Source: Bacteroidota bacterium
GTDB lineage: Bacteria > Bacteroidota > Bacteroidia > NS11-12g > UBA9320
Assembly: GCA_013359235.1 (NCBI GenBank)
Contig: JABWCE010000016.1
Span: 733-64,732, forward strand
Length of the DNA: 64,000 bases
Reading direction: 5' to 3'
Shown here: positions 2,629 to 47,469 of the stretch, piece by piece
How positions within the stretch are numbered: the stretch's first letter is position 1
How the letters are laid out: each line of letters starts with the position of its first letter
The notes under the pieces: model-generated
Database searches by the model: none
What the model saw: the letters and a program-made list of their open reading frames with translations, nothing else
Told to the model about the DNA's origin: nothing
Program-made: the position numbers and the translations under genes

Positions 2629-3529
2629 AATGTAATATTTTTAGTTTACAATTTGCCGAAATAAATGAAAATTGGTTTGGTGAATACATTATAAATCTAT
2701 CAATATTAATATTCTCATTTTTAATTTTTATCCAACCTGACTTTAAATATCTAATAGATTCTCTAAAAAAATTGATTTTATATTCACCAATATAAATGTA
2801 ATTAAGACCCCAATTGTTTGATGTTTCTTGTTCATTTAATTTTATACCAACAATAAAATCATTAGTTATAATTTCCTTGTTAATTTTAATATTAATCCAT
2901 CCAGTTTTTTTTAAAAAAATTGTGTCACTCTTGAATATTAAATTTTTAGGATAATGACCAATTATTTCCCTTCCATGAGGATTTGCGTATCTTAATGTAT
3001 CTATGCCTGGTAAATAAACGGATACAACAAGTTTGGGGCTTGAAAAAGTATGTATTTTTGATATATAAAAATTAAACTCTTCCAAAACACTGCAATCAAT
3101 CTCATTTACTTCAAAAAGCAAATATAATTCCTGGTCATTTACTAAGTCCAAACCATTAGCAAAATTACCATGATATGGTTTTTGTTTATTTCCTAAATAC
3201 TTTGTTTTGTATGACTTTGGTTTGCTCAAACCATTATCTATCTTTAATTCAATTATATATGTAAAATTATTGCTTTTTTTCAAACGAATTAATTTTTTAT
3301 AATAACCTTCTTTATAAATTATAAGTTGATTTGAAATTCCTAATGGTAAGTACATACAACATTTGCCAAGTGAATCAACTGTATAATTTGTACCATTAGA
3401 AATAGTACAAATTGCACCATTAAGATTTAACCCATTTTTTTCTTTTAATATTATACATAAATTAAATGCCATTAACTTAAAGTTAATGGCATTTAAAAAA
3501 AAGAATAATATTAGAGTTTTTTTATTCAA
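2618..3529 (-). CDS. Hypothetical secreted protein with N-terminal CarboxypepD_reg-like segment
   Basis: A TTG at 3529 gives MNKKTLILFFFLNAINF, a signal-like N-terminus. The segment ...GAICTISNGTNYTVDSLGKCCMYLP..IIYKEGYY resembles a carboxypeptidase-regulatory-like fold. The rest is unrecognised. Confidence 0.4.
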   Translation of the reverse strand: MNKKTLILFFFLNAINFKLMAFNLCIILKEKNGLNLNGAICTISNGTNYTVDSLGKCCMYLPLGISNQLIIYKEGYYKKLIRLKKSNNFTYIIELKIDNGLSKPKSYKTKYLGNKQKPYHGNFANGLDLVNDQELYLLFEVNEIDCSVLEEFNFYISKIHTFSSPKLVVSVYLPGIDTLRYANPHGREIIGHYPKNLIFKSDTIFLKKTGWINIKINKEIITNDFIVGIKLNEQETSNNWGLNYIYIGEYKINFFRESIRYLKSGWIKIKNENINIDRFIMYSPNQFSFISANCKLKILHFEK

Positions 3530-4274
3530 TAACAATTTGTCTTGAATTAATAATTTCTCCATTAGTTATTTTAAGTGTGTATTGCCCTTTATTAAGCGAA
3601 GATACTGCTATATTTTCATTTATTAAAAAAGAAGAATTCTTTTGATAAACTATTGTACCAGTTGAATTCTCAATTAATTCAATTTTATCAATAAATATAT
3701 TATTATTACCAAGATTAACTGTCAAATTTAAACTAGACGGATTTGGTGATACCGATACACAATTAAAATTAACTTCTGGTTCATTATATAATGGTACTAA
3801 AACTGGTAAAGAAATAACCGGTACAAAACAATCTGATTCTAATCCTTCAACAGTTACTGAATAACCAGCCAACGCCAATCTAAATATTGTAGCATTATTT
3901 AGATTTACAGGATTTAATAAATTTGAAATTGTTCTATATTCAATTGGAACATTAAAACCTAATTCGACTAATTCATTCATTGCTTGCGATATGTATCTCA
4001 GTAACTTATTAGGATCATTCATTTCCTCATCAGTAGGATGCGATATTCCTGTATTGCAAGGGCGTGTCCACTCATAAGTGGTAGTTTTAGTTCCCCAAAG
4101 AGGATGTGTACAAGTCATATCTTGTGTAAATTTACAAGACGAACTTCCTGGATAGGTAACAGTTACAGACGGTTCTCCAACCCAATGACACTTCCATAAA
4201 TTAATTGAAGGTGCAGCATCTGAAAAGTTATAAATTGAAACTAACAGAAAAGTAATAAATATTAATTTTTTCAT
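3522..4274 (-). CDS. Secreted Cys-rich protein with T9SS C-terminal sorting domain
   Basis: Signal peptide MKKLIFITFLLVSIYNFSDA. C-terminal SVSPNPSS..LTVNL...GQYTLKITNGEIINSRQIVIE matches the type-A Por secretion tail pattern. Confidence 0.6.
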   Translation of the reverse strand: MKKLIFITFLLVSIYNFSDAAPSINLWKCHWVGEPSVTVTYPGSSSCKFTQDMTCTHPLWGTKTTTYEWTRPCNTGISHPTDEEMNDPNKLLRYISQAMNELVELGFNVPIEYRTISNLLNPVNLNNATIFRLALAGYSVTVEGLESDCFVPVISLPVLVPLYNEPEVNFNCVSVSPNPSSLNLTVNLGNNNIFIDKIELIENSTGTIVYQKNSSFLINENIAVSSLNKGQYTLKITNGEIINSRQIVIE

Positions 4275-4580: not shown

Positions 4581-7500
4581 TCAATGCTTTTTTTCGTATA
4601 TTTTTTTCCTCATTTTTGGGAAAAGATAATCAAGTTCTTTGCGGTAATACAACCCAACACCTGAAGTATTTATATAAGTATTGCTGCCACTCAAAGGATC
4701 GTTTGCACGGCGGTTAAAACCACGTAGTCTTAATCTGCCATCTTGTTTTATTTTGTAGCTTAAATTAAAGTCATAAGAACTGTTTCCGGCTTGCCCATAC
4801 ACGCCTGCCACTTCTATTTTTTCATTAAACAGTTTTCTTTTTAACGAAACCATTATTTGTTTTTGTGTTTCGATATTTTGTGAATTTTTCCAGTCAATGC
4901 CCAACTCCCAATTGGGGTCTATTTGTCTTAACCACGAGTTTACTTGAGTTGTCATAAATGCACCCAAACTGTTTTGAACAGACGAATACAAATTTGATGA
5001 AGTAGCAGTAGAAATACCGGGCGAAGATGGAGCAAATGAATTAAATACAAGCAAATTTATAAATTGTTTATTAACCTCCTCTTGGTCAGTTTTCATCATA
5101 TTTATTACATTAACAAGATCGTTGTTTGAAAACAAAGTTGAACTATTTTCATCAGAAACATCAATACCGAGAGTAATTTGTGGATGAAAAAGATTTTCTT
5201 TTAGAGTAATATTACAATTTATTCCTACATTACTATTGCCATTTTCGGTTTTTATAGTTGCCGATGGCAAAATTACCGAAGGGTCAACATTTACGGTAGT
5301 TGTAGCTACCATATCTATTATAGCTTCATAAGGGTTGCCGTTCCATACTATTTTTCCACCATTTTTCACTTTCAAATTTTTGTTTACCAGATTATTTAAA
5401 GCAGTAAAGTTGTAACTTCCCTTGTCAATAATATAGCTTCCATACATATAAAAATCGCCATAAGTATTAAGTTCCATTTTAATATTTCCTTCGCCTGTAG
5501 CTTTAATTACATCATCAAATTTTGAATCAAAAATCAATCTCAATTCAGCATCATTTGTAATATTAAAATTAAAATCCATAGTAATACCGGTGAGGCTTTT
5601 TCTCTGTGGTTTGTAATTATATCCTCTTAGGTCAACTATTTTTATATAATCGGGTCCTGTAGTTTCTGTTGTGCTAGCTAATGGAAGAGAAATTACGGTT
5701 TTGGGCCTGCTTCGGGCATTTATATTCAGATACAAATTATCAATTGTACCATTGAGAACCATATTGCCATCTACAAAGGCGTTTCCAAAAAACAAATCTC
5801 CTTGTTCTTCTGTCAAATTCATGCAATTGAAATTTTTTAAATCTTTCATAAAAATTGCATATTTAAAATTATTGAAATTCTTATGAAAAATCACCCCACC
5901 TGCCTTTGCTTTTGAGCCGTATTTGTCAGCTACTTCAAATTCTCCAAGGTTTATTTTATCTTTATCAATTTTTACTTTTGCTTTGTTAATATTAAGTGGT
6001 ATTCCGAGGTAGTCCATTATCATACTTGCATCTACAACTTCAATATCGCCTTTTGTCTCAATTTTTTCAAAATTACCTGTAAGGCTTATTACCGCAGTAT
6101 CTATTATCCCTTTAACATTCGAAAAAAGTCCTTTTGTAATAGTTTCAAAAGGTTTTAAACTCGCTTTGCTCAATGTAAAATTCAGGTTTATTTTTTCGTT
6201 TTGTGGAGTAATATCAATCGAACCAAGTAAAATTAAATTGTTAATAATTCCATTTTTTATCATTCCGCTTATTCTCATCAAATAGCTACCGGGCTGATTT
6301 CTGCTGTACAAAACCACATTACCTACAGAGTCGGAATTAAAAATAAGATTATCTATTGTCAAATCAGTTTTTATAATTGGTTTTGAACTGCTACCATTTA
6401 AATCAATATTGCTGTTTACAATTCCTTGAAGTTTTATATCCCATTTTTTTAATATGGGATTTATTTCTACGAGGTTTAAATTGTTTATTTTTATATTTAA
6501 TTCCGAAAATTTGTCTATACCCGCTGTGCCTTCTGCCGAAATGAATTGCGAACCGTTCCAAAGCTTAAAACTATCAATTTCAAGTGTGTTTTTTACAATT
6601 GTAAAATAATTGTTATCATTTATTTTCCACTGTTGGTTATAAATGTAAATTGATGAGTTTTTTAAATTTAAGCCAACTGTATCATCGTTTAATGAAATTT
6701 TTCCTTCGGTATTCAAACTCAAATTGTCTGTTGTATCAGAAAGCAATAGGCTAAAATCAATGTCGTTAATGCCAATTTCGGCAGAAACTATAAGGTTTTT
6801 AGATAACAAACTATCTTTATTAAGTATTTTGCCAACACTTGCATCAAGCGATAGTTTTTTATCAGGATTTTTTTGACTTTGAAGATTTATTTCATCAAAA
6901 AGGTATTTTTTATAACTTATATTATCTACCATTGCAACAATATCGAGGTTGCTGTTTTCTGAATTGTAAACTCCTGTGGCAGTAAAATTTGTAAATTTCA
7001 CATCAGGGAAAAACAAAGGTGATAAAAACCTTGAATCGCTAATATCAATATCAAATCTTAAATCAACAGGTTCTACTTTTAATGTTGAATTTGAGTAAAA
7101 TTCGGGAAAAAGCTTTTGAATAAAAATCTTATTAATATTATCAATTTCACTTATTTTAAATTTTCCGACAAGCGAAATATTTCCCATATTGCTGCTAAGC
7201 TGTATTGAGCGATTATTGTAGTTTCCAAAAGCATCTAATTTTATATTTCCAATAGAAAACAGTGAATTGTTTTTTTCGAGTTCAACCTCGCTCAAAAGTG
7301 CATGAACAGTAATATTATCAATATCTTTGCCTTCAAAATCAATATTTACATCTTGTAATTTGCTAATGTTTATTTCGCCAAAGCCCAATTTTTTAAGATT
7401 TATAAATTTTGATTTTGCAGTAAAACTGCCTGTTGGCAAATCGTTATTAAAATCAAAATTTCCATCTAAGTTTAGTTTTGCATTGGGGTCGTCCAAATCA

Positions 7501-38088: not shown

Positions 38089-39165
38089 TTATAGTTCTGT
38101 TATTTTAATATTATTTACTCTCTTAAAAATTTCTTCAACTCTATTTTTGCTTGTATCAGTAATAAATACCTGTCCTATTGATTTTCCTTCTAAAATCTGG
38201 ATGAGTTTTTCTGTTCTGTCATTGTCTATTTTTTCAAAAATATCATCTAAAAGCAAAATGGGTTTAATAGCTTTCTTTTCATAAATCAAATCGTACATGG
38301 CCATTTTTAGTGAAATAAGATAAGTTTTTATCTGCCCTTGCGAACCTGTTTTTTTCAAAGTCATATTATTCAACTCAAAAACCCAATCGTCTCTGTGTAT
38401 CCCAAAACTTGTTCTGCCCAATATCCTGTCTTTGCTGTTGCTTTGTTTCAATCCATCTTTAAAATCTACATTTTGCAAACCGCTTGTGTATGTAAATTGT
38501 ATTTTATCTTTTCCATTATTTAAAAAATCATACGATTTTTCAAAGAAATCTTTAAATTCATTAGTCAATACTGTTCTTATATTAAAAATAAAGTTGCCAT
38601 ATTTCTCAAGCAAATTATCATAATATTCAATAATTACTTCATCATAAATGTTTTTTTCGATAAATAATTTCAATTGTCGGTTGCGGTTTTCCAAAGCTTT
38701 TTGATACAAAACAAGGTTTTGCAAATAATCACGGTCTATTACCGAAAATAGATAATCAAAAAAAATTCGACGATTTTCACTATCTCCGTTAATAATTTCA
38801 ATATCACCAGGAGCTATCATTACACAAGGAAATTTTCCGAAATATGCAGCTATTTTTTCAAAAGGTTTTTCATCGCATTTTATAACTTTTCGTTTGCCTT
38901 GTTGAAATGAAACTTGCAACTTAACAGAATTTGTGCTGTTAGTTATATTTCCTTTAAGCATAAAAAAATTTTCACCTTGCTTTATACAAATATTATCGGG
39001 GGTAAGAAAATAAGATTTACCATTTAGCAAAACATAAACCGCATCTAATATATTGGTTTTCCCAATGCCGTTTTTACCACAAAAAATATTAATTCCATTT
39101 TCAATCTCCAAGTATAGTTGCTCGTGACTTTTAAATTGATTTATAGAAATGTTTTTTAAAAACAA
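38089..39165 (-). CDS. recF: DNA replication and repair protein RecF
   Basis: Walker A GKNGIGKTNILDA and a C-terminal LLLDDIFEKID signature/Walker B region. Confidence 0.9.
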   Translation of the reverse strand: MFLKNISINQFKSHEQLYLEIENGINIFCGKNGIGKTNILDAVYVLLNGKSYFLTPDNICIKQGENFFMLKGNITNSTNSVKLQVSFQQGKRKVIKCDEKPFEKIAAYFGKFPCVMIAPGDIEIINGDSENRRIFFDYLFSVIDRDYLQNLVLYQKALENRNRQLKLFIEKNIYDEVIIEYYDNLLEKYGNFIFNIRTVLTNEFKDFFEKSYDFLNNGKDKIQFTYTSGLQNVDFKDGLKQSNSKDRILGRTSFGIHRDDWVFELNNMTLKKTGSQGQIKTYLISLKMAMYDLIYEKKAIKPILLLDDIFEKIDNDRTEKLIQILEGKSIGQVFITDTSKNRVEEIFKRVNNIKITEL

Positions 39166-42407: not shown

Positions 42408-43778
42408 TTACTCTTTAATTATACGAGTTGAGCAAGAACCTGCTTTAATAATATAAGTCCCCGCAGGTGCATTAATAAAAATGCTGTTTGTTCCGTATTG
42501 CAACTGCCCGTCTTGCACTTTTTTGCCTGAAATATCAAAAATTGTATATGGCAAATTTTTGTCTGAATTCACAAAAAACATTTGATTTTTTACAGGATTA
42601 GGAAAAACATACAGTTCGTTTTTCTCTTTCAATTTTATATCACTTATTTGCTTAGCTTCATACCAATAATTCATTAACATACTTTTTCTCCAAGACAATG
42701 TATTAGCATTCCAATACTCAAGTAAATACTTAGTACGGTATCCATTTGCATCACGACTATATGTTAATTGTGAATTATTTTCCCATGTGCCTTTATTTAA
42801 ATAATATTCATTATCTTTTATGAGTCTGTTTGTTGCATCATAAATATAAATTTGTTTAGATGTAGAATCCCAACTTAAATTATTTACATTCCACATCTCA
42901 TTAAATATTTTTTCCAATAATCCTTTGTTATTATATACATACGAATGTCTATATTTAAATCTCCAAATATTTAAATTTGGGTTCCACTCCGAATTTATTT
43001 TGCTGGTCATTCTGTTTGAAACATCATAAATATATTCATATTTGTACTTATTTCTATATACTGAAAATATTGTATCATAATATTGTTCAATATATTTAAC
43101 TCTATTGCCATTTATATCATAACTATATAGATACTGACTATTATTTATCCATTGGTTAGTGCTCATTTTATATTTCTGTACAGAATATATTGTGTCTAAA
43201 TTTTTTGAATTATATGAATGAACAATTCTATAATCATTTCGCCAAATTTTATTAGGATGATTCCAAACTTCACGTAGATATACATTAATTCTACCATTTG
43301 GTGCATAAGTTGAAGAAAATTTTTCACTATTAACCCACTCTTTATTAACATCAGCCCATTCTTTTATAAGTTTTTGAAGTTCTAAATTGCTACCATCGTA
43401 AATATATTCATATAATTTTTTTATAGGATTGTTTATATTAGAATCTATACGGATAAGAATCTTACCACCCGAATTGTAAGAATACTTATAATAAGTATCG
43501 TATTTCAATTTTCCGCCATTAGCATCAAATTCAAAATATTTACAATCAATAATAAGATTTTTTGAATTGTAAGTAAGATTAAATGAATCCTTATCGTTCC
43601 ACTTTAAGGTGTTATTATCCCAATAGTATTATCGTTGTCCATTCATGTTTTTAGTGCCATCGCCATAATTGTCTCCTTCGTCAAATTCATAGTTTACTAG
43701 TTTATCTTGTGCAATTGAGAAAGAAGAAATTAATAATAAACATACTAAAGTTGTAAAAAAATTTTTAAGGGTTTTCAT
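42408..43778 (-). pseudogene. T9SS C-terminal-domain cargo with YD-like repeats, interrupted by one in-frame TAA
   Basis: The ATG at 43778 gives signal peptide MKTLKNFFTTLVCLLLISSFSIAQ. Codon 50 is TAA (complement of 43629-43631). The same frame then continues YYWDNNTLKWNDKDSF... into the 366-aa ORF, which ends in a T9SS tail (LYVFPNPVKNQMFF...GTYIIKAGS). Confidence 0.7.
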
Positions 43779-43837: not shown

Positions 43838-44467
43838 TTGAAAAAAAATTTGAGAAAAGAAGAAAAATCTAAGAAAGTAATTGAAATTCTGGAAGATTTA
43901 TTTCCCAATCCTGCTGTACCATTGATTCACAAAGACCCATACACATTATTAATTTCGGTTTTGCTATCAGCACAATGTACTGATGAAAGAGTAAATAAAA
44001 TAACTCCCATACTTTTTAACAAAGCTGATAATCCATATAAAATGGTAACATTGAGTATAGAAGAAATACAGGAAATTATAAAACCTTGTGGACTTAGTGC
44101 AGCAAAGGCAAAAGCAATATTTAATCTCAGCAAAATATTAATTGAAAATCACGATGCTAAAGTTCCAAAATCGTTTGAAGAATTGGAAAAATTACCGGGT
44201 GTTGGTCACAAAACTGCTTCGGTAGTTATGAGCCAGGCATGGGGAGTACCAGCATTTCCGGTTGATACACATATACATCGTCTTGCACATCGTTGGGGAC
44301 TTTCATCGGGCAAAAATGTGGTACAAACCGAAAATGATCTTAAAAGAATTTTTCCAAAAGAAAAATGGAACACTTTGCATTTGCAAATAATTTTTTTTGG
44401 CCGCAAATTTTGCAAAGCACGTGGTCATATAGAGCATGAATGCCCAATTTGTAGAATAATAAATTAG
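43838..44467 (+). CDS. nth: Endonuclease III (DNA glycosylase/AP lyase)
   Basis: HhH-GPD motifs (LPGVGHKTASVV, VDTHIHR). The C-terminal Fe-S loop shows only three Cys before the stop. Confidence 0.85.
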   Translation: MKKNLRKEEKSKKVIEILEDLFPNPAVPLIHKDPYTLLISVLLSAQCTDERVNKITPILFNKADNPYKMVTLSIEEIQEIIKPCGLSAAKAKAIFNLSKILIENHDAKVPKSFEELEKLPGVGHKTASVVMSQAWGVPAFPVDTHIHRLAHRWGLSSGKNVVQTENDLKRIFPKEKWNTLHLQIIFFGRKFCKARGHIEHECPICRIIN

Positions 44468-45192
44468 TTTAGTAAGTGAATTTTTTTACTTGCTTTAGAA
44501 TACGACAAAACTCCTATATGTTTATCGTTACTTGCCGTATAATTTTCATAATTACCTCTATAAATATTTACTAAACAAATAGAATTATCAGGGAAATAAG
44601 ATAACATAGAAGGTGCAATTTTATAAGAACCATTATCTGTAACTTGTACATATTTTTTTATTGAACTCGATTGATTATTTTGATTTGAATTGTCTTTAAT
44701 GAATTCAATTTCTACAATAACTGTATTAGAAGTACTACCAGCATTCCAACTTATTAATAAACTATCATTTTTATTAAAATCATTATTTAACCCACTTACA
44801 CCGAAAAGGTTGAAAGTAGTAAATTCATTTAAATTAGGATGGATGATATTTTGTGGTACAAAACCACTGTTTCCTGCAATATTTATGGTTATTGTACTGC
44901 CAATCCAATTATTGGTTTCTGGTGTTCCACTTACGAGAGATAACTTATAATTATTATTCTCGACAGAATCAACAGGAACATTTTGGGAATTAGCTGTTAA
45001 ATTACCAACATTTACGCAGGTAGAATCTTCAGTATTATTTTTGAAATTTGCATAAAATTCGTACTGATGATTTATTCCATTAAATAAAGAAAATACTTGA
45101 ATAAATCCTTCAGGATCTATCTCGTTTCCAATTATTAAATTTTGAATATTATAATCAAAATTTTTTTCTAAATCAGTAGAAGTTTTTTGCAT
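44464..45192 (-). CDS. Hypothetical protein; probable lipoprotein whose signal peptide is out of frame upstream
   Basis: No family was recognised. An upstream mini-ORF from the ATG at 45239 encodes MKKIVTLLSIVIFLMTC in another frame, and the two frames are joined across an A6 tract. Confidence 0.5.
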   Translation of the reverse strand: MQKTSTDLEKNFDYNIQNLIIGNEIDPEGFIQVFSLFNGINHQYEFYANFKNNTEDSTCVNVGNLTANSQNVPVDSVENNNYKLSLVSGTPETNNWIGSTITINIAGNSGFVPQNIIHPNLNEFTTFNLFGVSGLNNDFNKNDSLLISWNAGSTSNTVIVEIEFIKDNSNQNNQSSSIKKYVQVTDNGSYKIAPSMLSYFPDNSICLVNIYRGNYENYTASNDKHIGVLSYSKASKKIHLLN

Positions 45193-45311
45193 GTCATAAG
45201 AAATATGACAATTGATAGAAGTGTAACTATTTTTTTCATGATTTTTTATTTTTTACAAACAAATTTAATAACAAAATAAATGATAACTATCTAATTATGA
45301 AATTATTTTTT

Positions 45312-45414
45312 TATAAAAAATTTTAGACATATAACCTTGCCTGACGAAACAAATTAAAAAAACTTAAATATTCTTTCACGAATAGGTTTGTGATTACATA
45401 AACCGATAAATCAA
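45312..45414 (+). repeat. Left copy of 103-bp direct repeat flanking the MTase-HNH cassette
   Basis: Identical in length to 46846-46948, with 3 mismatches (45327, 45330, 45334). The final 80 nt are identical. Confidence 0.95.
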
Positions 45415-45545
45415 CATAAAATCATTCTATTGTGAATTATTCAAATAGTTATACATTTAACTTCTTGAAATTTTGTTCATCAGCAGGAATTAATAATAAG
45501 TAAAATATCAAAATTCATTTTATTTCTATTAGCACAAAATTTATT

Positions 45546-45553
45546 TAAATTTG
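45546..45553 (+). promoter_or_regulatory. Candidate Bacteroidota -7 promoter element (TAnnTTTG)
   Basis: TAAATTTG lies 47 nt upstream of the MTase ATG. No clear -33 TTTG partner was seen. Confidence 0.3.
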
Positions 45554-45599
45554 CAAGATAGAACTTAACAAAATATATTGCGAAAATTGTCTAAAAACC

Positions 45600-46379
45600 A
45601 TGGCAAATATGCCAGATAATTTTATTGATTTAACCATAACTTCTCCTCCTTATGATAATTTAAGGTCATATAATAATTATGTTAATGGAAATAAAAAGAA
45701 ATTTAATTATCATTCATTTCAATTTGAAGATATTGCAAAAGAATTATATAGAATAATAAAGAATGGTGGAGTTTTGGTTTGGGTAGTTGGAGATGAAACA
45801 ATTAATGGCAACGAAACAGGTAATTCTTTTAGACAAGCACTTTTTTTTAAAGAATGTGGATTTAATTTATTCGATACTATGATATACTCTAAACCTCCGA
45901 GAGGATCAGTTGGAAACAATAAAACATATTGGCAATCATTTGAATATATGTTTATATTAAGTAAGGGACAACCCAAAACAATAAATTTGTTAAGAGACCG
46001 AGAAAATAAAGAAGAAAGAAAAGGTGATAATGGAACTAAAAGACTGTATAATGGCGATTTACTAAATTTAGAACGAAATGGATATGGTAAATTTGGTAGA
46101 AGAACTAATATTTGGGAATATTACATTGGCAAAGGTCATTCAACCAAAGATAATATAGCTTTTAAACATCCTGCTATATTTCCAGAAAAATTGGCATACG
46201 ATCATATATTAAGTTGGTCAAATGTTGATGAATTAGTCTATGATCCTATGATGGGTAGCGGAACAGTTGCTAAAATGTGCATTTTAACTGATAGGCGATA
46301 CATTGGAAGTGAAATAAATGAAGAGTATTGTAATATTGCTAAAATTAGAATTTCACAAAAAAAGTTACAAATTTTATGA
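45600..46379 (+). CDS. Beta-class DNA methyltransferase, SPPY type (probable N4-cytosine, possibly N6-adenine)
   Basis: Motif IV DLTITSPPY is near the N-terminus and motif I VYDPMMGSGTV near the C-terminus, which is the beta-class order. Homology-like coding sequence continues upstream of the ATG (see findings). Confidence 0.85.
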   Translation: MANMPDNFIDLTITSPPYDNLRSYNNYVNGNKKKFNYHSFQFEDIAKELYRIIKNGGVLVWVVGDETINGNETGNSFRQALFFKECGFNLFDTMIYSKPPRGSVGNNKTYWQSFEYMFILSKGQPKTINLLRDRENKEERKGDNGTKRLYNGDLLNLERNGYGKFGRRTNIWEYYIGKGHSTKDNIAFKHPAIFPEKLAYDHILSWSNVDELVYDPMMGSGTVAKMCILTDRRYIGSEINEEYCNIAKIRISQKKLQIL

Positions 46380-46843
46380 AATGTATAGAGTGTAATAAAA
46401 ATAAAGCTGAAATAAAAGCATTTTGCAAAACTTGTTTTAATGAAACTAAAGTATGCCGAAGATGTCAACAACGAAAAAGCATTTTTGAATTTGAAAAAAA
46501 CCAGAAAAGTATTGCTGGAAAAGTATCAAGAAGAGGCGAGTGCAAAGATTGTCGCAAGTGGAGAAAACCTATACCACATAAGCTAAAATTAGAATATGAA
46601 AAAAAATATCCTATTCCTCCTATTGGTGAAAATTTTACTTGCCCAATTTGTCAAAATACAATTTTAAGGCAGTTTAAAAATGACGTTGTTTTAGACCATT
46701 CTCACATAGATGGGACAATACGTGGTTGGATTTGCAGACAATGCAATTCAAGTATTGGCATGATGGATGAAAACATAAATATATTACATAGAGCAATAAA
46801 ATGGATAAAAGGAAAATTATCTATACTATTTACAATCTCTTAA
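46376..46843 (+). CDS. Endonuclease-VII-type HNH (beta-beta-alpha-Me) nuclease with multiple CxxC zinc motifs
   Basis: CPIC...VLDHSHIDGTIRGWICRQCNSSIG matches the recombination endonuclease VII pattern (DHxH..G..RG.LC..CN..LG). There are six CxxC pairs. An ATGA start/stop overlap links it to the MTase. Confidence 0.8.
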   Translation: MKCIECNKNKAEIKAFCKTCFNETKVCRRCQQRKSIFEFEKNQKSIAGKVSRRGECKDCRKWRKPIPHKLKLEYEKKYPIPPIGENFTCPICQNTILRQFKNDVVLDHSHIDGTIRGWICRQCNSSIGMMDENINILHRAIKWIKGKLSILFTIS

Positions 46844-46845
46844 CA

Positions 46846-46948
46846 TATAAAAAATTTTAGGCAGATATCCTTGCCTGACGAAACAAATTAAAAAAACTTA
46901 AATATTCTTTCACGAATAGGTTTGTGATTACATAAACCGATAAATCAA
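46846..46948 (+). repeat. Right copy of 103-bp direct repeat (native 3' flank of the DUF2480 gene)
   Basis: See the left copy. This copy includes the TGA stop of the 46945..47469 gene. Confidence 0.95.
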
Positions 46949-47469
46949 GGTTTGTTTTTTTCAACATTCAATTTTTTAAAAACCGGTACAGTACTGCATG
47001 GTTCGCCATACATAACACTCGAAGCAACAGGCTGAAGGATTTTTAATATTTCAACATAAGCAAACACAGGGACAGGCAAATTTCCACATCCCTTTACTAC
47101 TATTTTGTGGTTTCGGTATTGTTCTACATCAATGTTTGATAATGCCATCTGAAAAAGAGAATTTTCGAGTTGCTCAGTATTTCCAAAAACAAAATAATTT
47201 GCAATACCAGACAGTTTGCTGCCTACAAGCATAAATGCCCATGTTGGCACTATTGCATCGGCAGTGCAAACAATTGCTACATTTTTGTTTTTGTAAACTG
47301 TCCAATCATTATTTTTTACAAATTCCCTAAAATCTTTTTCCTTTAAAATTAAACCCATATACAGGCAATCTTTTATATCAAAAACTACACGTTCGTTTTT
47401 ATCATAATAATCTTCGAGGTTTATGGTTATTATACCGCTGTTTGCAACTTTATTTATTATTGTTTCCAT
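46945..47469 (-). CDS. DUF2480-family protein
   Basis: METIINKVANSGIITINLEDYY...GLILKEKDFREFV...KGCGNLPVPVFAY...MYGEPCSTVPVFK matches my recollection of the conserved Bacteroidota DUF2480 family. Confidence 0.6.
   Translation of the reverse strand: METIINKVANSGIITINLEDYYDKNERVVFDIKDCLYMGLILKEKDFREFVKNNDWTVYKNKNVAIVCTADAIVPTWAFMLVGSKLSGIANYFVFGNTEQLENSLFQMALSNIDVEQYRNHKIVVKGCGNLPVPVFAYVEILKILQPVASSVMYGEPCSTVPVFKKLNVEKNKP

Follow-up and report, generated by a model that had tools for sequence, protein, structure and literature searches.

Insertion of restriction-modification (R-M) genes together with a long duplication of the target was described between 2000 and 2010 (Nobusato et al., 2000, Gene 259:99; Furuta, Abe & Kobayashi, 2010, NAR 38:2428, PMC2853133). 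In the sections of the 2010 paper on which we draw, the published duplications range from about 46 to 420 bp, the repeats in the H. influenzae cases share 2 and 15 bp with the 3′ end of an adjacent gene, and no mechanism is offered beyond DNA double-strand breakage as a suggested common property. Sections of the same paper and of PMC4760077 cite Sadykov et al. (2003) for the amplification of R-M complexes flanked by long direct repeats and for a proposed virus-like life cycle. Two kinds of nuclease provide further points of comparison. Hpy99I belongs to an R-M system of H. pylori J99, recognises CGWCG, and has an N-terminal SH3-like barrel (residues 1–53; PDB 3fc3) that is needed for activity (PMC2699513). 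Free-standing phage homing genes of the HNH/Endonuclease VII kind (e.g. F-CphI, PMC6083498) carry the same catalytic motif as the nuclease described below and include homologues that are about 30% identical to it.

Here we describe a two-gene cassette in a 64-kb stretch of DNA from a Bacteroidota bacterium; this whole stretch, as analysed, is referred to as the window. Compared with the R-M inserts in the portions of PMC2853133 considered here, the cassette is similar in having an R and an M gene, no other mobility gene and a size far below 20 kb. As in those cases, there is a direct repeat of more than 30 bp, here with two copies in the 64-kb window and a few-base overlap with the 3′ end of a neighbouring gene, and its 103 bp are within the published range. 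The criteria of R and M homologues, a size below 20 kb and a repeat longer than 30 bp, as given in those portions, all describe this cassette. It differs from the cases presented there in its host, Bacteroidota not being among the phyla named in those portions, in having a restriction enzyme of the Hpy99I/HNH type, in a repeat that consists of a 3′ UTR and terminator, and in differences between the repeat copies that are confined to the hairpin.

Organisation of the locus

The features to which the text refers are as follows, in window coordinates.

44464..45239, minus strand: lipoprotein-like gene, the left-hand chromosomal neighbour (signal peptide/lipobox ORF from ATG 45239)
45312..45414, no strand: left copy of the 103-nt direct repeat, with a version of the terminator hairpin weakened by 3 substitutions (repeat nt 16, 19, 23)
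45415..45544, plus strand: 130-bp unique segment inside the insert; searches of the window, the loci fetched, IMG/VR and GTDB genomes gave no match
45545..46846, plus strand: conserved cassette core, 84–87% nucleotide identity to cassettes in other genomic contexts
45546..45553, plus strand: candidate cassette promoter, TAAATTTG, at the left boundary of this core
45600..46379, plus strand: predicted beta-class DNA methyltransferase, 259 aa (PF01555 N6_N4_Mtase, 1.2e-39)
46376..46843, plus strand: predicted Hpy99I-family beta-beta-alpha-Me (HNH) type II restriction endonuclease, 155 aa (PF02945 Endonuclease_7, 5e-14)
46846..46948, no strand: right copy of the 103-nt direct repeat, covering the last base of the final DUF2480 sense codon, the stop codon, the 3′ UTR and the terminator up to where its T-run ends
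46849..46876, minus strand: intrinsic-terminator-like site of DUF2480, hairpin AGGCAAGGATATCTGCCT then AAAATTTTTT
46945..47469, minus strand: DUF2480 gene, the right-hand chromosomal neighbour (PF10652, 2.6e-74)

An earlier, sequence-only reading of this DNA had reported a direct repeat at 45312–45414 and 46846–46948 with three differences in nt 16–23 and 80 identical nt. We recomputed the alignment and obtained the same result: 100 of the 103 positions are identical, the mismatches are at repeat nt 16, 19 and 23, and the 80 nt at the end of the repeat are mismatch-free (45335–45414 = 46869–46948). Other parts of its description were equally accurate. The left copy, placed about 70 bp upstream of the lipoprotein-like gene, begins 72 bp upstream of the signal peptide ATG. 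The right copy, regarded as the native 3′ flank of DUF2480, holds the TGA of that gene at 46945–47, within the ORF at 46945–47469. The 1431-bp insert between the copies has the two overlapping genes that were reported, with ORFs at 45600–46379 and 46376–46843 that share ATGA at 46376–46379. In the lipoprotein-like gene, the signal-peptide/lipobox ORF (ATG 45239) is out of frame with a 242-aa body (ATG 45192), and the shift occurs at an A6 run.

When the 80-mer was searched against the whole 64-kb window with up to 3 mismatches allowed, two copies and no third were found, and 0 of 100 shuffles matched. Low-stringency blast of the repeat against the window returned, beyond the two copies, just chance matches of 10–15 nt in A/T-rich sequence, and the 38-nt repeat core had 0 matches in GTDB genomes and 0 in JGI metagenome contigs. 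The repeat has no terminal inverted repeats, no Rfam match and only its two copies in the window, and a search for structured RNA or a tRNA inside it found none. Within the 64-kb window the 103-mer is a locus-specific, two-copy sequence, and the 103 bp were probably single-copy before the insertion. The sequence-only reading had raised the alternative of a REP/MITE-like repeat, which is very unlikely given the two copies in the window and the lack of matches to the core in GTDB genomes and JGI contigs. An apparent extension of the repeat to 142 nt was rejected as chance: the extra nucleotides are A/T-rich and agree at 20 of 39 positions, and those on the right belong to the part of the restriction gene that encodes its conserved C-terminus. 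By eye, no microhomology was evident at either of the two junctions.

The duplicated segment is exactly the 3′ UTR and terminator module of DUF2480. All three differences between the copies (3/3) are inside the DUF2480 terminator hairpin, and the left-copy hairpin is the weaker one. The mismatches are clustered (P ~0.01 under uniform mutation) and sit cassette-proximal in the right copy, with the other 80 nt identical. After the duplication, termination of DUF2480 would need the right copy only. A left-copy terminator that is no longer needed would explain why all three differences are in the hairpin and why it is weaker on the left.

The two genes form a predicted R-M pair

The HNH protein aligned with Hpy99I (PDB 3fc3) at an E value of 4.4e-18, residues 23–145 on 74–196, and its D107, H108 and N124 aligned with the catalytic D148, H149 and N165. 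It carries six CxxC motifs, and those at 27, 56, 89 and 120 align with Hpy99I. The protein also matched the REase_II model of PADLOC (1.2e-17). As in Hpy99I, there are two predicted beta4-alpha2 zinc repeats, four CxxC motifs, a beta-beta-alpha-Me site with Asp-His and Asn, and a cognate methyltransferase gene. The SH3-like barrel of the Hpy99I N-terminus is absent, and the protein has instead a segment of about 22 residues (CxxC-x10-CxxC) that is conserved among the homologues whose N-termini were inspected. With a match of E 4e-18 over the 123 aligned residues, the recognition sequence may differ from that of Hpy99I. An attempt to guess the recognition site from motif depletion was uninformative, as the count of CGWCG in the window (6 versus 12 expected) was not significant.

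In the methyltransferase, motif IV (SPPY) is close to the N-terminus and motif I (MGSGT) is close to the C-terminus; the SPPY motif suggests N4-methylcytosine as the modified base. The protein matched MTase models at 2e-86 and 4e-52. Its relatives begin at an ATG 14 codons upstream, where the window reads ATA (45558). The NCBI record annotates a 273-aa methyltransferase product from this position.

A methyltransferase gene is adjacent to the HNH homologue in 26 of 27 GTDB loci and 78 of 80 JGI loci. Because the two genes occur together in these 104 of 107 homologous loci, we interpret the pair as an R-M system and not as a homing nuclease, and on the homology described above the methyltransferase and HNH protein are predicted to be a type II R-M pair. 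The sequence-only reading had called the nuclease an Endonuclease-VII-type HNH protein. The PF02945 match agrees with this as far as it goes, but more narrowly the protein is homologous to Hpy99I, a type II restriction enzyme. Its description of an R-M-like module, based on the methyltransferase and HNH genes, can be sharpened to a predicted bona fide R-M system by the Hpy99I homology and the pairing.

Phage proteins annotated as endonuclease VII were 30–33% identical over 85–92% of the HNH protein. In IMG/VR there was a single match (33%), and among plasmids there were none. A phage or plasmid vector for the cassette was considered and rejected, since plasmids gave no match and the phage relatives reach only 30–33% identity.

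The cassette is an acquired insert

The window was compared with a sister species (L080), in which DUF2480 and pyruvate kinase are 85% and 89% identical at the amino-acid level. In this genome DUF2480 and nth are 3 bp apart (the aligned blocks are 23 bp apart), so that the window has 2.5 kb extra between these genes. The sister species has no cassette, no 103-mer and no lipoprotein gene, the interval being wholly absent. Nucleotide similarity to cassettes from two other contexts is restricted to 45545–46846, and it stops 3 nt past the stop codon of the restriction-enzyme gene, where the right repeat begins. The right end of the insert is 2 nt after this stop codon. Based on the adjacency of DUF2480 and nth in the sister species and on similarity that is confined to the core, the cassette is an insertion that is foreign to the DUF2480 locus.

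The 130-bp segment at 45415..45544 probably comes from the previous context of the cassette. The octamer TAAATTTG fits the Bacteroidetes –7 consensus TAnnTTTG and is probably the promoter of the cassette. The ends of the cassette are not conserved across the three contexts that were compared.

The sequence-only reading had suggested looking for an empty site with a single 103-mer, and none was found in GTDB genomes, JGI contigs or two sister species (L080 and L082), in both of which the whole region is missing. Among 5.8 billion proteins, no DUF2480 homologue was found between 85% and 100% identity. A lone "variant" in the DUF2480 90% cluster (P0241) was rejected as Illumina adapter read-through.

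We also looked for genes that could have moved the cassette. Pfam scans covered 36 of the 47 window ORFs of at least 180 aa, and precomputed Pfam entries covered seven more; among these ORFs of the 64-kb window there were no integrase or transposase families. The sole mobile-element name, IstB_IS21, is a secondary match on DnaA. The 64-kb window yielded no tRNA gene, and the insert has no convincing terminal inverted repeats. The Pfam scans and repeat search thus bear out the earlier observation that integrase, transposase and terminal inverted repeats are lacking, and we agree that 103 bp is far beyond the length of a transposase target-site duplication.

Homologous cassettes in other genomes

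The R-M family to which this cassette belongs has thousands of homologues and was found in Bacteroidota, Patescibacteria and Actinomycetota. The nuclease-methyltransferase pair occurs in two architectures, tandem or convergent, and the convergent one adds a 73-aa helix-turn-helix controller-like gene and has an HTH-fused methyltransferase. A near-identical cassette (~99%) is present in several groundwater metagenome contexts.

Some of these cassettes are also flanked by direct repeats. In three of them (L145, L147 and L148) the repeat is 213–229 bp long and consists of the dnaN 3′ end, in one (L091) it is 68 bp long and consists of the 3′ end of a gene encoding 226 aa, and in one (L159) it is 49 bp long. 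A sister genome to L147 and L148 (L165) has one copy of the dnaN-end repeat, no cassette and no alignable downstream flank. At least three homologous cassettes are repeat-flanked in the same way as the one in the window, with repeats that are mutually unrelated, 49–229 bp long and derived from the host. In a further locus (L087) the flanking 127-bp element has terminal inverted repeats of its own and may be a repeat family instead of a target duplication.

Flanking direct repeats were found in about 6% of homologous cassettes. They occur in 5 of about 85 real contexts compared with 1 of 225 controls (Fisher p = 0.007), where the controls were pseudo-cassettes in ordinary DNA (0/181 and 1/44). 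Closely related cassettes bring along about 130–225 bp of what is apparently DNA from an earlier context.

Formation of the flanking repeats

We favour, with a probability of roughly 70%, the idea that a type II R-M pair was acquired horizontally and that its insertion duplicated a 103-bp target made up of the DUF2480 stop codon, 3′ UTR and terminator. The cassette would have entered between the DUF2480 terminator and the region that holds the promoter of the adjacent gene. A linear or circularised fragment with the two genes and about 130 bp of earlier context would join the chromosome by illegitimate recombination at a pair of breaks that are spaced by 103 bp and lie on a single chromosome or on two sister chromosomes. 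Alternatively, the fragment would capture a 103-bp piece of the host and then cross into an intact copy. Post-segregational killing is typical of R-M systems, and it would hold the insertion in place.

The assembly data bear on this reading and on two others. Each of the four junctions was recovered at 100% identity in Logan assemblies (k=31) made from 16 SRA runs, although contigs built with k=31 cannot establish the linkage of the two repeat copies; it is the 65,159-bp contig of the NCBI record that gives the linear order, with the lipoprotein gene followed by a repeat, the cassette, the second repeat and DUF2480. Runs in which the organism is present are SRR14055731-34, SRR29850208/09/12/13, SRR12072165/66, SRR12262942, SRR20608311, SRR30015100, SRR10914235 and DRR774219. 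Two Logan contigs (L014 and L015) run from the restriction gene through a repeat with the right-copy variants into the left end of the cassette, whereas two contigs from the same data cross the repeat into DUF2480. The first two cannot be used as decisive evidence of excision because equally many contigs run through the repeat into DUF2480, and, where 80 nt are repeated exactly, a k=31 graph that loses two edges at low coverage gives the same path.

The junction in L014 and L015 is what a circle or tandem array would give, and it was considered in relation to a Campbell-type event, in which a circle with the cassette and one copy of the 103 bp enters the chromosomal copy by a RecA-mediated single crossover. 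The circle could have been excised in a different strain, from a cassette already bracketed by the repeats, and could then have entered by transformation, leaving repeats that are donor/recipient hybrids. The clustered mismatches and 80 identical nt fit a crossover within the 80 nt between a donor and recipient that differ only at the cluster, and the 130–225 bp of apparent earlier-context DNA in related cassettes are also compatible with such an event. However, the junction is also expected from the k=31 graph at low coverage, and selection, or relaxed constraint after duplication, likewise explains mismatches that all lie in the terminator hairpin. This route also leaves the origin of the first repeat-flanked copy unexplained. 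We consider this route, which the sequence-only reading had also put forward, unlikely but viable, and it is the best placed of the alternatives.

If the junctions in L014 and L015 are real, the repeat-flanked unit may still be cycling by loop-out or amplification via the 103-bp repeats, and the nuclease, or the breaks that it makes in unmethylated sister chromosomes, would produce the long target duplications. Like the system of Sadykov et al. (2003), as reported in the sections of PMC2853133 and PMC4760077 used here, a repeat-bracketed R-M pair could in principle amplify or loop out, and the two contigs show the corresponding junction. In contrast to the amplification reported there, these junctions are explicable as k=31 artefacts. 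We regard this extension of the duplication reading as rather improbable. Were it true, the R-M family would be self-mobilising despite lacking a recombinase, and this would fit both its spread over three phyla and the ~99% identical cassette in groundwater.

Two further explanations for the repeats are very unlikely, to a similar degree. The first is that the 103-mer is an att site and that the cassette is non-autonomous and moved in trans by a site-specific recombinase encoded elsewhere. Long direct repeats over gene 3′ ends are typical of attL/attR, and the genome inspected amounts to 64 kb. Yet neither an integrase gene nor a tRNA gene was found in the window, the core of the repeat has no match in GTDB genomes or JGI contigs, no cassette ends are conserved across three contexts, and the repeats of homologous cassettes are unrelated sequences of 49 to 229 bp drawn from whichever gene adjoins.

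The second is that the repeats pre-existed, as a REP/MITE-like sequence or an older tandem duplication, or that the assembly mis-resolved an empty site and a 1.5-kb circle. A precedent for repeats of the first kind is the 127-bp element with terminal inverted repeats that flanks L087. The 103-mer, by contrast, has two copies in 64 kb, none in public collections and no terminal inverted repeats, and it is improbable that a cassette would land precisely at the boundary of two tandem copies. As for mis-assembly, k=31 assemblies look alike for an integrated cassette and for a circle that accompanies an empty site, but a 1.5-kb circle that lacks a replication gene could not predominate and the submitted contig reads through both copies.

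Homing, in which the HNH protein would be a homing endonuclease and the cassette would spread by nuclease-triggered gene conversion as the sequence-only reading had suggested, is hardly credible despite the Endonuclease VII/HNH catalytic motif and the phage relatives: copying via flanking homology leaves no target duplication, so that the 103-bp duplication and the unrelated contexts with their own host-derived repeats contradict it; there is no one conserved target gene; the best characterised relative is a restriction enzyme; and, unlike F-CphI-type genes, the nuclease is paired with a methylase (some loci with a controller-like gene as well), its target is duplicated and there is no conserved homing site.

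Implications

The acquired R-M pair with its flanking repeats is probably a clean further example of a known mode of insertion and not a new kind of element. The sequence-only reading had spoken of an unexplained mobilisation route. This holds in the sense that no mechanism is given in the sections of PMC2853133 on which we draw, but the mode itself had already been named there as R-M insertion with long target duplication. For annotation, these results mean that a small "Endonuclease VII/HNH" gene that overlaps a PF01555 methylase is to be read as part of a type II R-M system and not as a homing nuclease.

The locus adds a very compact case, with an insert of 1.4 kb, from outside the phyla named in those sections. 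The R-M family as a whole provides several independent repeat-flanked insertions in candidate-phyla-radiation bacteria, one of them with a cassette-free sister genome. Together these make a comparative set that could be used to test staggered breaks, joining between sister chromosomes, and a crossover after a piece of host DNA has been captured as sources of the long duplications.

The cassette genes form a predicted restriction–modification pair

The sequence-only reading had described two coupled genes, overlapping in ATGA, between copies of a 103-nt direct repeat that differ at three positions and share their last 80 nt, with the TGA of the DUF2480 gene inside the right copy. The window sequence bears out this description. 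The methyltransferase (M) and nuclease (R) ORFs overlap at 46376–46379, the repeat copies differ at repeat positions 16 (A/G), 19 (T/G), and 23 (A/T) with the final 80 nt identical, and the TGA lies at 46945–47 on the minus strand.

45312–45414: 103-nt direct repeat, left copy
45600–46379: M, PF01555 N6_N4_Mtase (Pfam, 1.2e-39)
46376–46843: R, PF02945 Endonuclease_7 (Pfam, 5e-14)
46846–46948: 103-nt direct repeat, right copy

R, a 155-aa HNH protein, matches the type II restriction enzyme Hpy99I (PDB 3fc3; E 4.4e-18, residues 23–145 against 74–196), and a PADLOC type II restriction-enzyme model matches it at 1.2e-17. Hpy99I has the catalytic residues Asp148, His149, and Asn165 and four CxxC motifs in two zinc-binding beta4-alpha2 repeats (PMC2699513). 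Residues D107, H108, and N124 of R align with the three catalytic residues and its cysteine pairs at 27, 56, 89, and 120 with the four CxxC motifs. Unlike Hpy99I, R is without an N-terminal SH3-like barrel and has in its place a short CxxC-x10-CxxC segment, which is kept in those homologues whose N-terminal sequences were inspected. Identity to phage proteins that carry an endonuclease VII annotation is just 30–33%. In M the motifs come in beta-class order, SPPY lying towards the N-terminus and MGSGT towards the C-terminus, and PADLOC methyltransferase models match it at 2e-86 and 4e-52.

The strongest argument for a true R-M pair is that the two genes stay together across genomes, an M homologue adjoining an R homologue (64–83% identical) in 26 of 27 GTDB genomes and in 78 of 80 JGI contigs. 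Together, these data show that the cassette carries a predicted R-M pair. The homologous pair occurs in Bacteroidota, many Patescibacteria, and one Planktophila; no plasmid match was found. The two genes of the pair lie either in tandem, with M first as in the window, or convergently, and the convergent form has an extra 73-aa, controller-protein-like helix-turn-helix gene upstream of R and a methylase with a LexA-like N-terminal domain. Several copies of the family have a truncated R beside an intact M, which is the usual decay route of R-M systems.

In relatives of M the start ATG corresponds to 45558, a position that reads ATA in the window. Conservation extends over the next 14 codons, the NCBI record gives a 273-aa M product from 45558, and the first ATG of M in the window is at 45600. 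Expression of M may depend on a non-canonical start codon.

The repeat corresponds to the predicted 3' end of the DUF2480 transcript

On the minus strand, the right copy opens with the third nucleotide of the last sense codon of DUF2480, continues through the stop codon and 3' UTR, and closes on the final T of an intrinsic-terminator-like site.

46876–46849, minus strand: intrinsic-terminator-like site of DUF2480, hairpin AGGCAAGGATATCTGCCT then AAAATTTTTT

Because the right copy runs from the stop through the 3' UTR to the end of the terminator, the duplicated unit is predicted to be the complete 3' UTR and terminator module. The 80-mer has two sites in the window with up to 3 mismatches allowed and no matches in 100 shuffles, and a low-stringency search of the window with the repeat returned nothing beyond 10–15-nt A/T-rich chance matches. 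A check for further copies of the 103-mer in the window, and of a 38-nt core of it in GTDB and JGI data, found only the two window copies. The 103-mer has no Rfam match and contains no terminal inverted repeats.

All three differences between the copies lie in the hairpin of the terminator-like site (P ~0.01 for three random substitutions falling within 8 nt). Two of the three abolish base pairs in the left copy, whose hairpin folds ~3 kcal/mol less well. Either of two readings may account for this. The differences may have arisen after duplication with the copies under different constraint, since only the right copy is still needed to terminate DUF2480 transcription, or the cassette-proximal end of the right copy may be donor sequence from a homologous single crossover.

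A cassette foreign to the locus and without fixed ends

The nearest available relative is a Logan contig from a sister species (L080; L-numbers are our handles for retrieved contigs and loci), which at the amino-acid level is 85% identical in DUF2480, 89% in pyruvate kinase, and 82% in Nth. It has the same gene order as the window on both sides, with DUF2480 and nth convergent and 3 bp apart (aligned blocks 23 bp apart). Relative to L080, the window has an extra 2.5 kb (44458–46972) made up of the cassette, the two repeats that flank it, and the lipoprotein-like gene. The two closest cassettes, with methylases 93% and 88% identical to M, lie in unrelated contexts (beside guaA and beside a gene for a T9SS-secreted protein), and their nucleotide similarity to the window is confined to 45545–46846. 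The right limit of similarity is 3 nt past the R stop codon, at the exact start of the right repeat. The left limit is the TAAATTTG box (45546–45553), which we take to be a fit to the Bacteroidetes -7 promoter consensus. The 130-bp stretch from the left repeat up to this core (45415–45544) had no match in the window, the retrieved loci, GTDB genomes, or IMG/VR. The contexts of those two cassettes have a further 55 bp on the left and 12–15 bp on the right in common. As judged by these comparisons, the cassette is foreign to this locus. It is also without fixed ends, which argues against a transposase or site-specific recombinase.

Besides the cassette, two window genes are absent from L080 in the same interval, and the DUF2480 3' side is a synteny breakpoint also in more distant relatives (L016–L020, L082).

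42408–43508: gene for a T9SS-sorted DUF3836 protein, between lplA and nth
44464–45192: lipoprotein-like gene, between nth and DUF2480

The coding sequence of the lipoprotein-like gene is divided between two frames (45186–45239, minus strand). The short ORF that opens at ATG 45239, with a signal peptide and lipobox (MKKIVTLLSIVIFLMTC), reaches its stop after 23 codons, and the 242-aa body starts at ATG 45192 in a different frame. The frame shift is at an A6 run (TGCAAAAAACT), where one more A would join both parts; A6 is present in all of the Logan contigs L009–L012 (four runs, three projects). The gene could be phase-variable and in its off state, or a pseudogene.

Independent assemblies and genomic surroundings

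Logan (k=31) assemblies from 16 SRA runs contain the organism with 100% identity. Because the de Bruijn graph must branch at the repeat, contigs end there, four (L001, L004, L009, L011) at 30 nt into the 80-nt core and two (L007, L012) at the repeat end. In the Logan contigs, left-copy variants are always joined to the lipoprotein-gene side and right-copy variants to the R-gene side. Two contigs (L002/L013 and L005) cross the repeat from R into DUF2480, and two (L014, L015) cross from R into the left cassette end. The latter junction would be expected from a circle or tandem array, and equally as a low-coverage artefact with two of the four edges round the 80-nt repeat missing. The order with the cassette integrated is taken from the submitted 65-kb contig. 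A 180-aa DUF2480 "variant" (protein-collection entry P0241, L083, from Logan SRR29850208) was rejected as an allele; it ends in QIGRAHV, the translated Illumina adapter AGATCGGAAGAGCACACGTC, and is an assembly artefact.

The window has 47 ORFs of at least 180 aa; 36 were scanned against Pfam and seven more have precomputed entries. Both sets consist of ordinary Bacteroidota chromosomal genes, among them gldL/M/N, porP, trmD, tsaD, pyruvate kinase, pth, recF, and dnaA. Neither set includes an integrase or transposase family, and the window contains no tRNA gene. The repeat is long and, within the window and the GTDB and JGI data, locus-specific, and no mobility genes were found among the ORFs covered in the 64 kb.

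38089–39165: recF-like gene, ~6 kb from the cassette, on the side opposite dnaA
58475–59911: dnaA, ~12 kb from the cassette

With these two genes nearby, the insertion is probably near the replication origin. Several short palindromes are strongly under-represented in the 64 kb, with GGCC observed 10 times (85 expected), GATC 33 (116), and GCGC 2 (25); CTAG and TCGA are also strongly under-represented. Scarcity of short palindromes is what long exposure to restriction systems usually leaves behind.

Host-derived repeats flank other members of the family

We screened other loci of the family for direct repeats bracketing the gene pair.

Direct repeats at other loci of the R-M family (length, identity, content)
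L145, L147, L148 (Ca. Gribaldobacteria): 213–229 bp, 99%, dnaN 3' end; copies at 3682–3910 and 6041–6269 (L147) and at 812–1024 and 3171–3383 (L148)
L165 (sister genome of these): single copy, 4910–5125
L091: 68 bp, 91%, last 66 nt and stop of a 226-aa gene
L159: 49 bp, 96%, includes a palindrome rich in G+C
L087: 127 bp, 86%, unit with its own terminal inverted repeats

The Gribaldobacteria loci have a convergent R/M pair immediately after dnaA-dnaN, and the sister genome L165, 87% identical in nucleotides, carries the dnaN segment once and is free of the cassette. The stop codon is mutated in the downstream repeat copy of L091. In groundwater metagenomes, a cassette ~99% nucleotide-identical across L067–L076 and L085–L088 (for example, L069:4920–6510) has four or more distinct left flanks and several on the right, and in some copies R is cut to 82–83 aa. 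The 127-bp element always accompanies this cassette, 96 bp after the R gene, and in L087 an 86% identical copy precedes the cassette too; this unit may be a repeat family rather than a target duplication. The family repeats are unrelated in sequence to each other and to the 103-mer.

As controls, 1.3-kb pseudo-cassettes were placed in ordinary DNA; of 181 set in Bacteroidota chromosomal DNA none had repeats, and of 44 set in R-M locus flanks one did. Repeats occurred in 5 of ~85 real contexts versus 1 of 225 controls (Fisher p = 0.007, denominators rough). These data show that host-derived long repeats recur in this R-M family. Five Patescibacteria loci (L049, L050, L052, L056, L060) have instead long inverted repeats of 58–265 bp, 90–99% identical, and resemble the transposon-like R-M forms of Furuta et al. 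(2010). L150 and L157 are also listed with the inverted-repeat-bracketed Patescibacteria copies, and the arms are partly common to different genomes (L049, L050, L056).

Mode of insertion

Furuta, Abe and Kobayashi (2010; PMC2853133) give four criteria for insertion of an R-M system with long target duplication: R and M genes in the insert, an insert of <20 kb without another mobile element, a repeat of >30 bp, and alignment of both repeats to one copy in an insert-free genome. Their reported cases, from several phyla, have repeats of ~46–420 bp, some of which overlap a neighbouring gene 3' end by 2–15 bp. Double-strand breakage is suggested there as a common cause, and a virus-like cycle of insertion, amplification via the repeats, and release is proposed, with experimental support for amplification only. 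The present locus has the first three features, and the collections searched held no sufficiently close cassette-free relative of the window. The Gribaldobacteria cassette has the fourth in part, with L165 sharing the single repeat copy and not the downstream flank. We consider the locus to be an insertion of an R-M system with long target duplication, with a probability of about 0.7.

An att-flanked element does not fit and is unlikely, since no recombinase gene was found in the window, a core is not conserved, and the ends of the cassette are not fixed. Homing leaves no duplication, so the locus does not behave like a homing endonuclease gene, and the homing-like gene conversion of the sequence-only reading is not supported; the interpretation given in that reading was, overall, partly supported.

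For insertion with target duplication, a fragment with M, R, and ~130 bp of earlier context would have been joined by illegitimate recombination. Joining could have used two breaks separated by 103 bp, lying on a single chromosome or on two sister copies; alternatively, the fragment would first have joined a 103-bp host fragment to form a circle, and this circle would have recombined with an intact chromosome by a crossover. Post-segregational killing, an established behaviour of R-M systems, would then keep the inserted unit in place. Sister copies are most abundant near the origin, and two cassettes are origin-near, the present one ~12 kb from dnaA and the Gribaldobacteria one directly after dnaN; this is only a hint of sister-copy joining. 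Strong hairpins, which are known break-prone sites, occur in three of five repeats, again only a hint that they bear on breakage. Any particular duplication mechanism is held with much less confidence than the insertion itself.

The structure is not categorically new and is a tidy example of an insertion mode described 15–25 years ago. Its main value is the comparative set offered by this R-M family.
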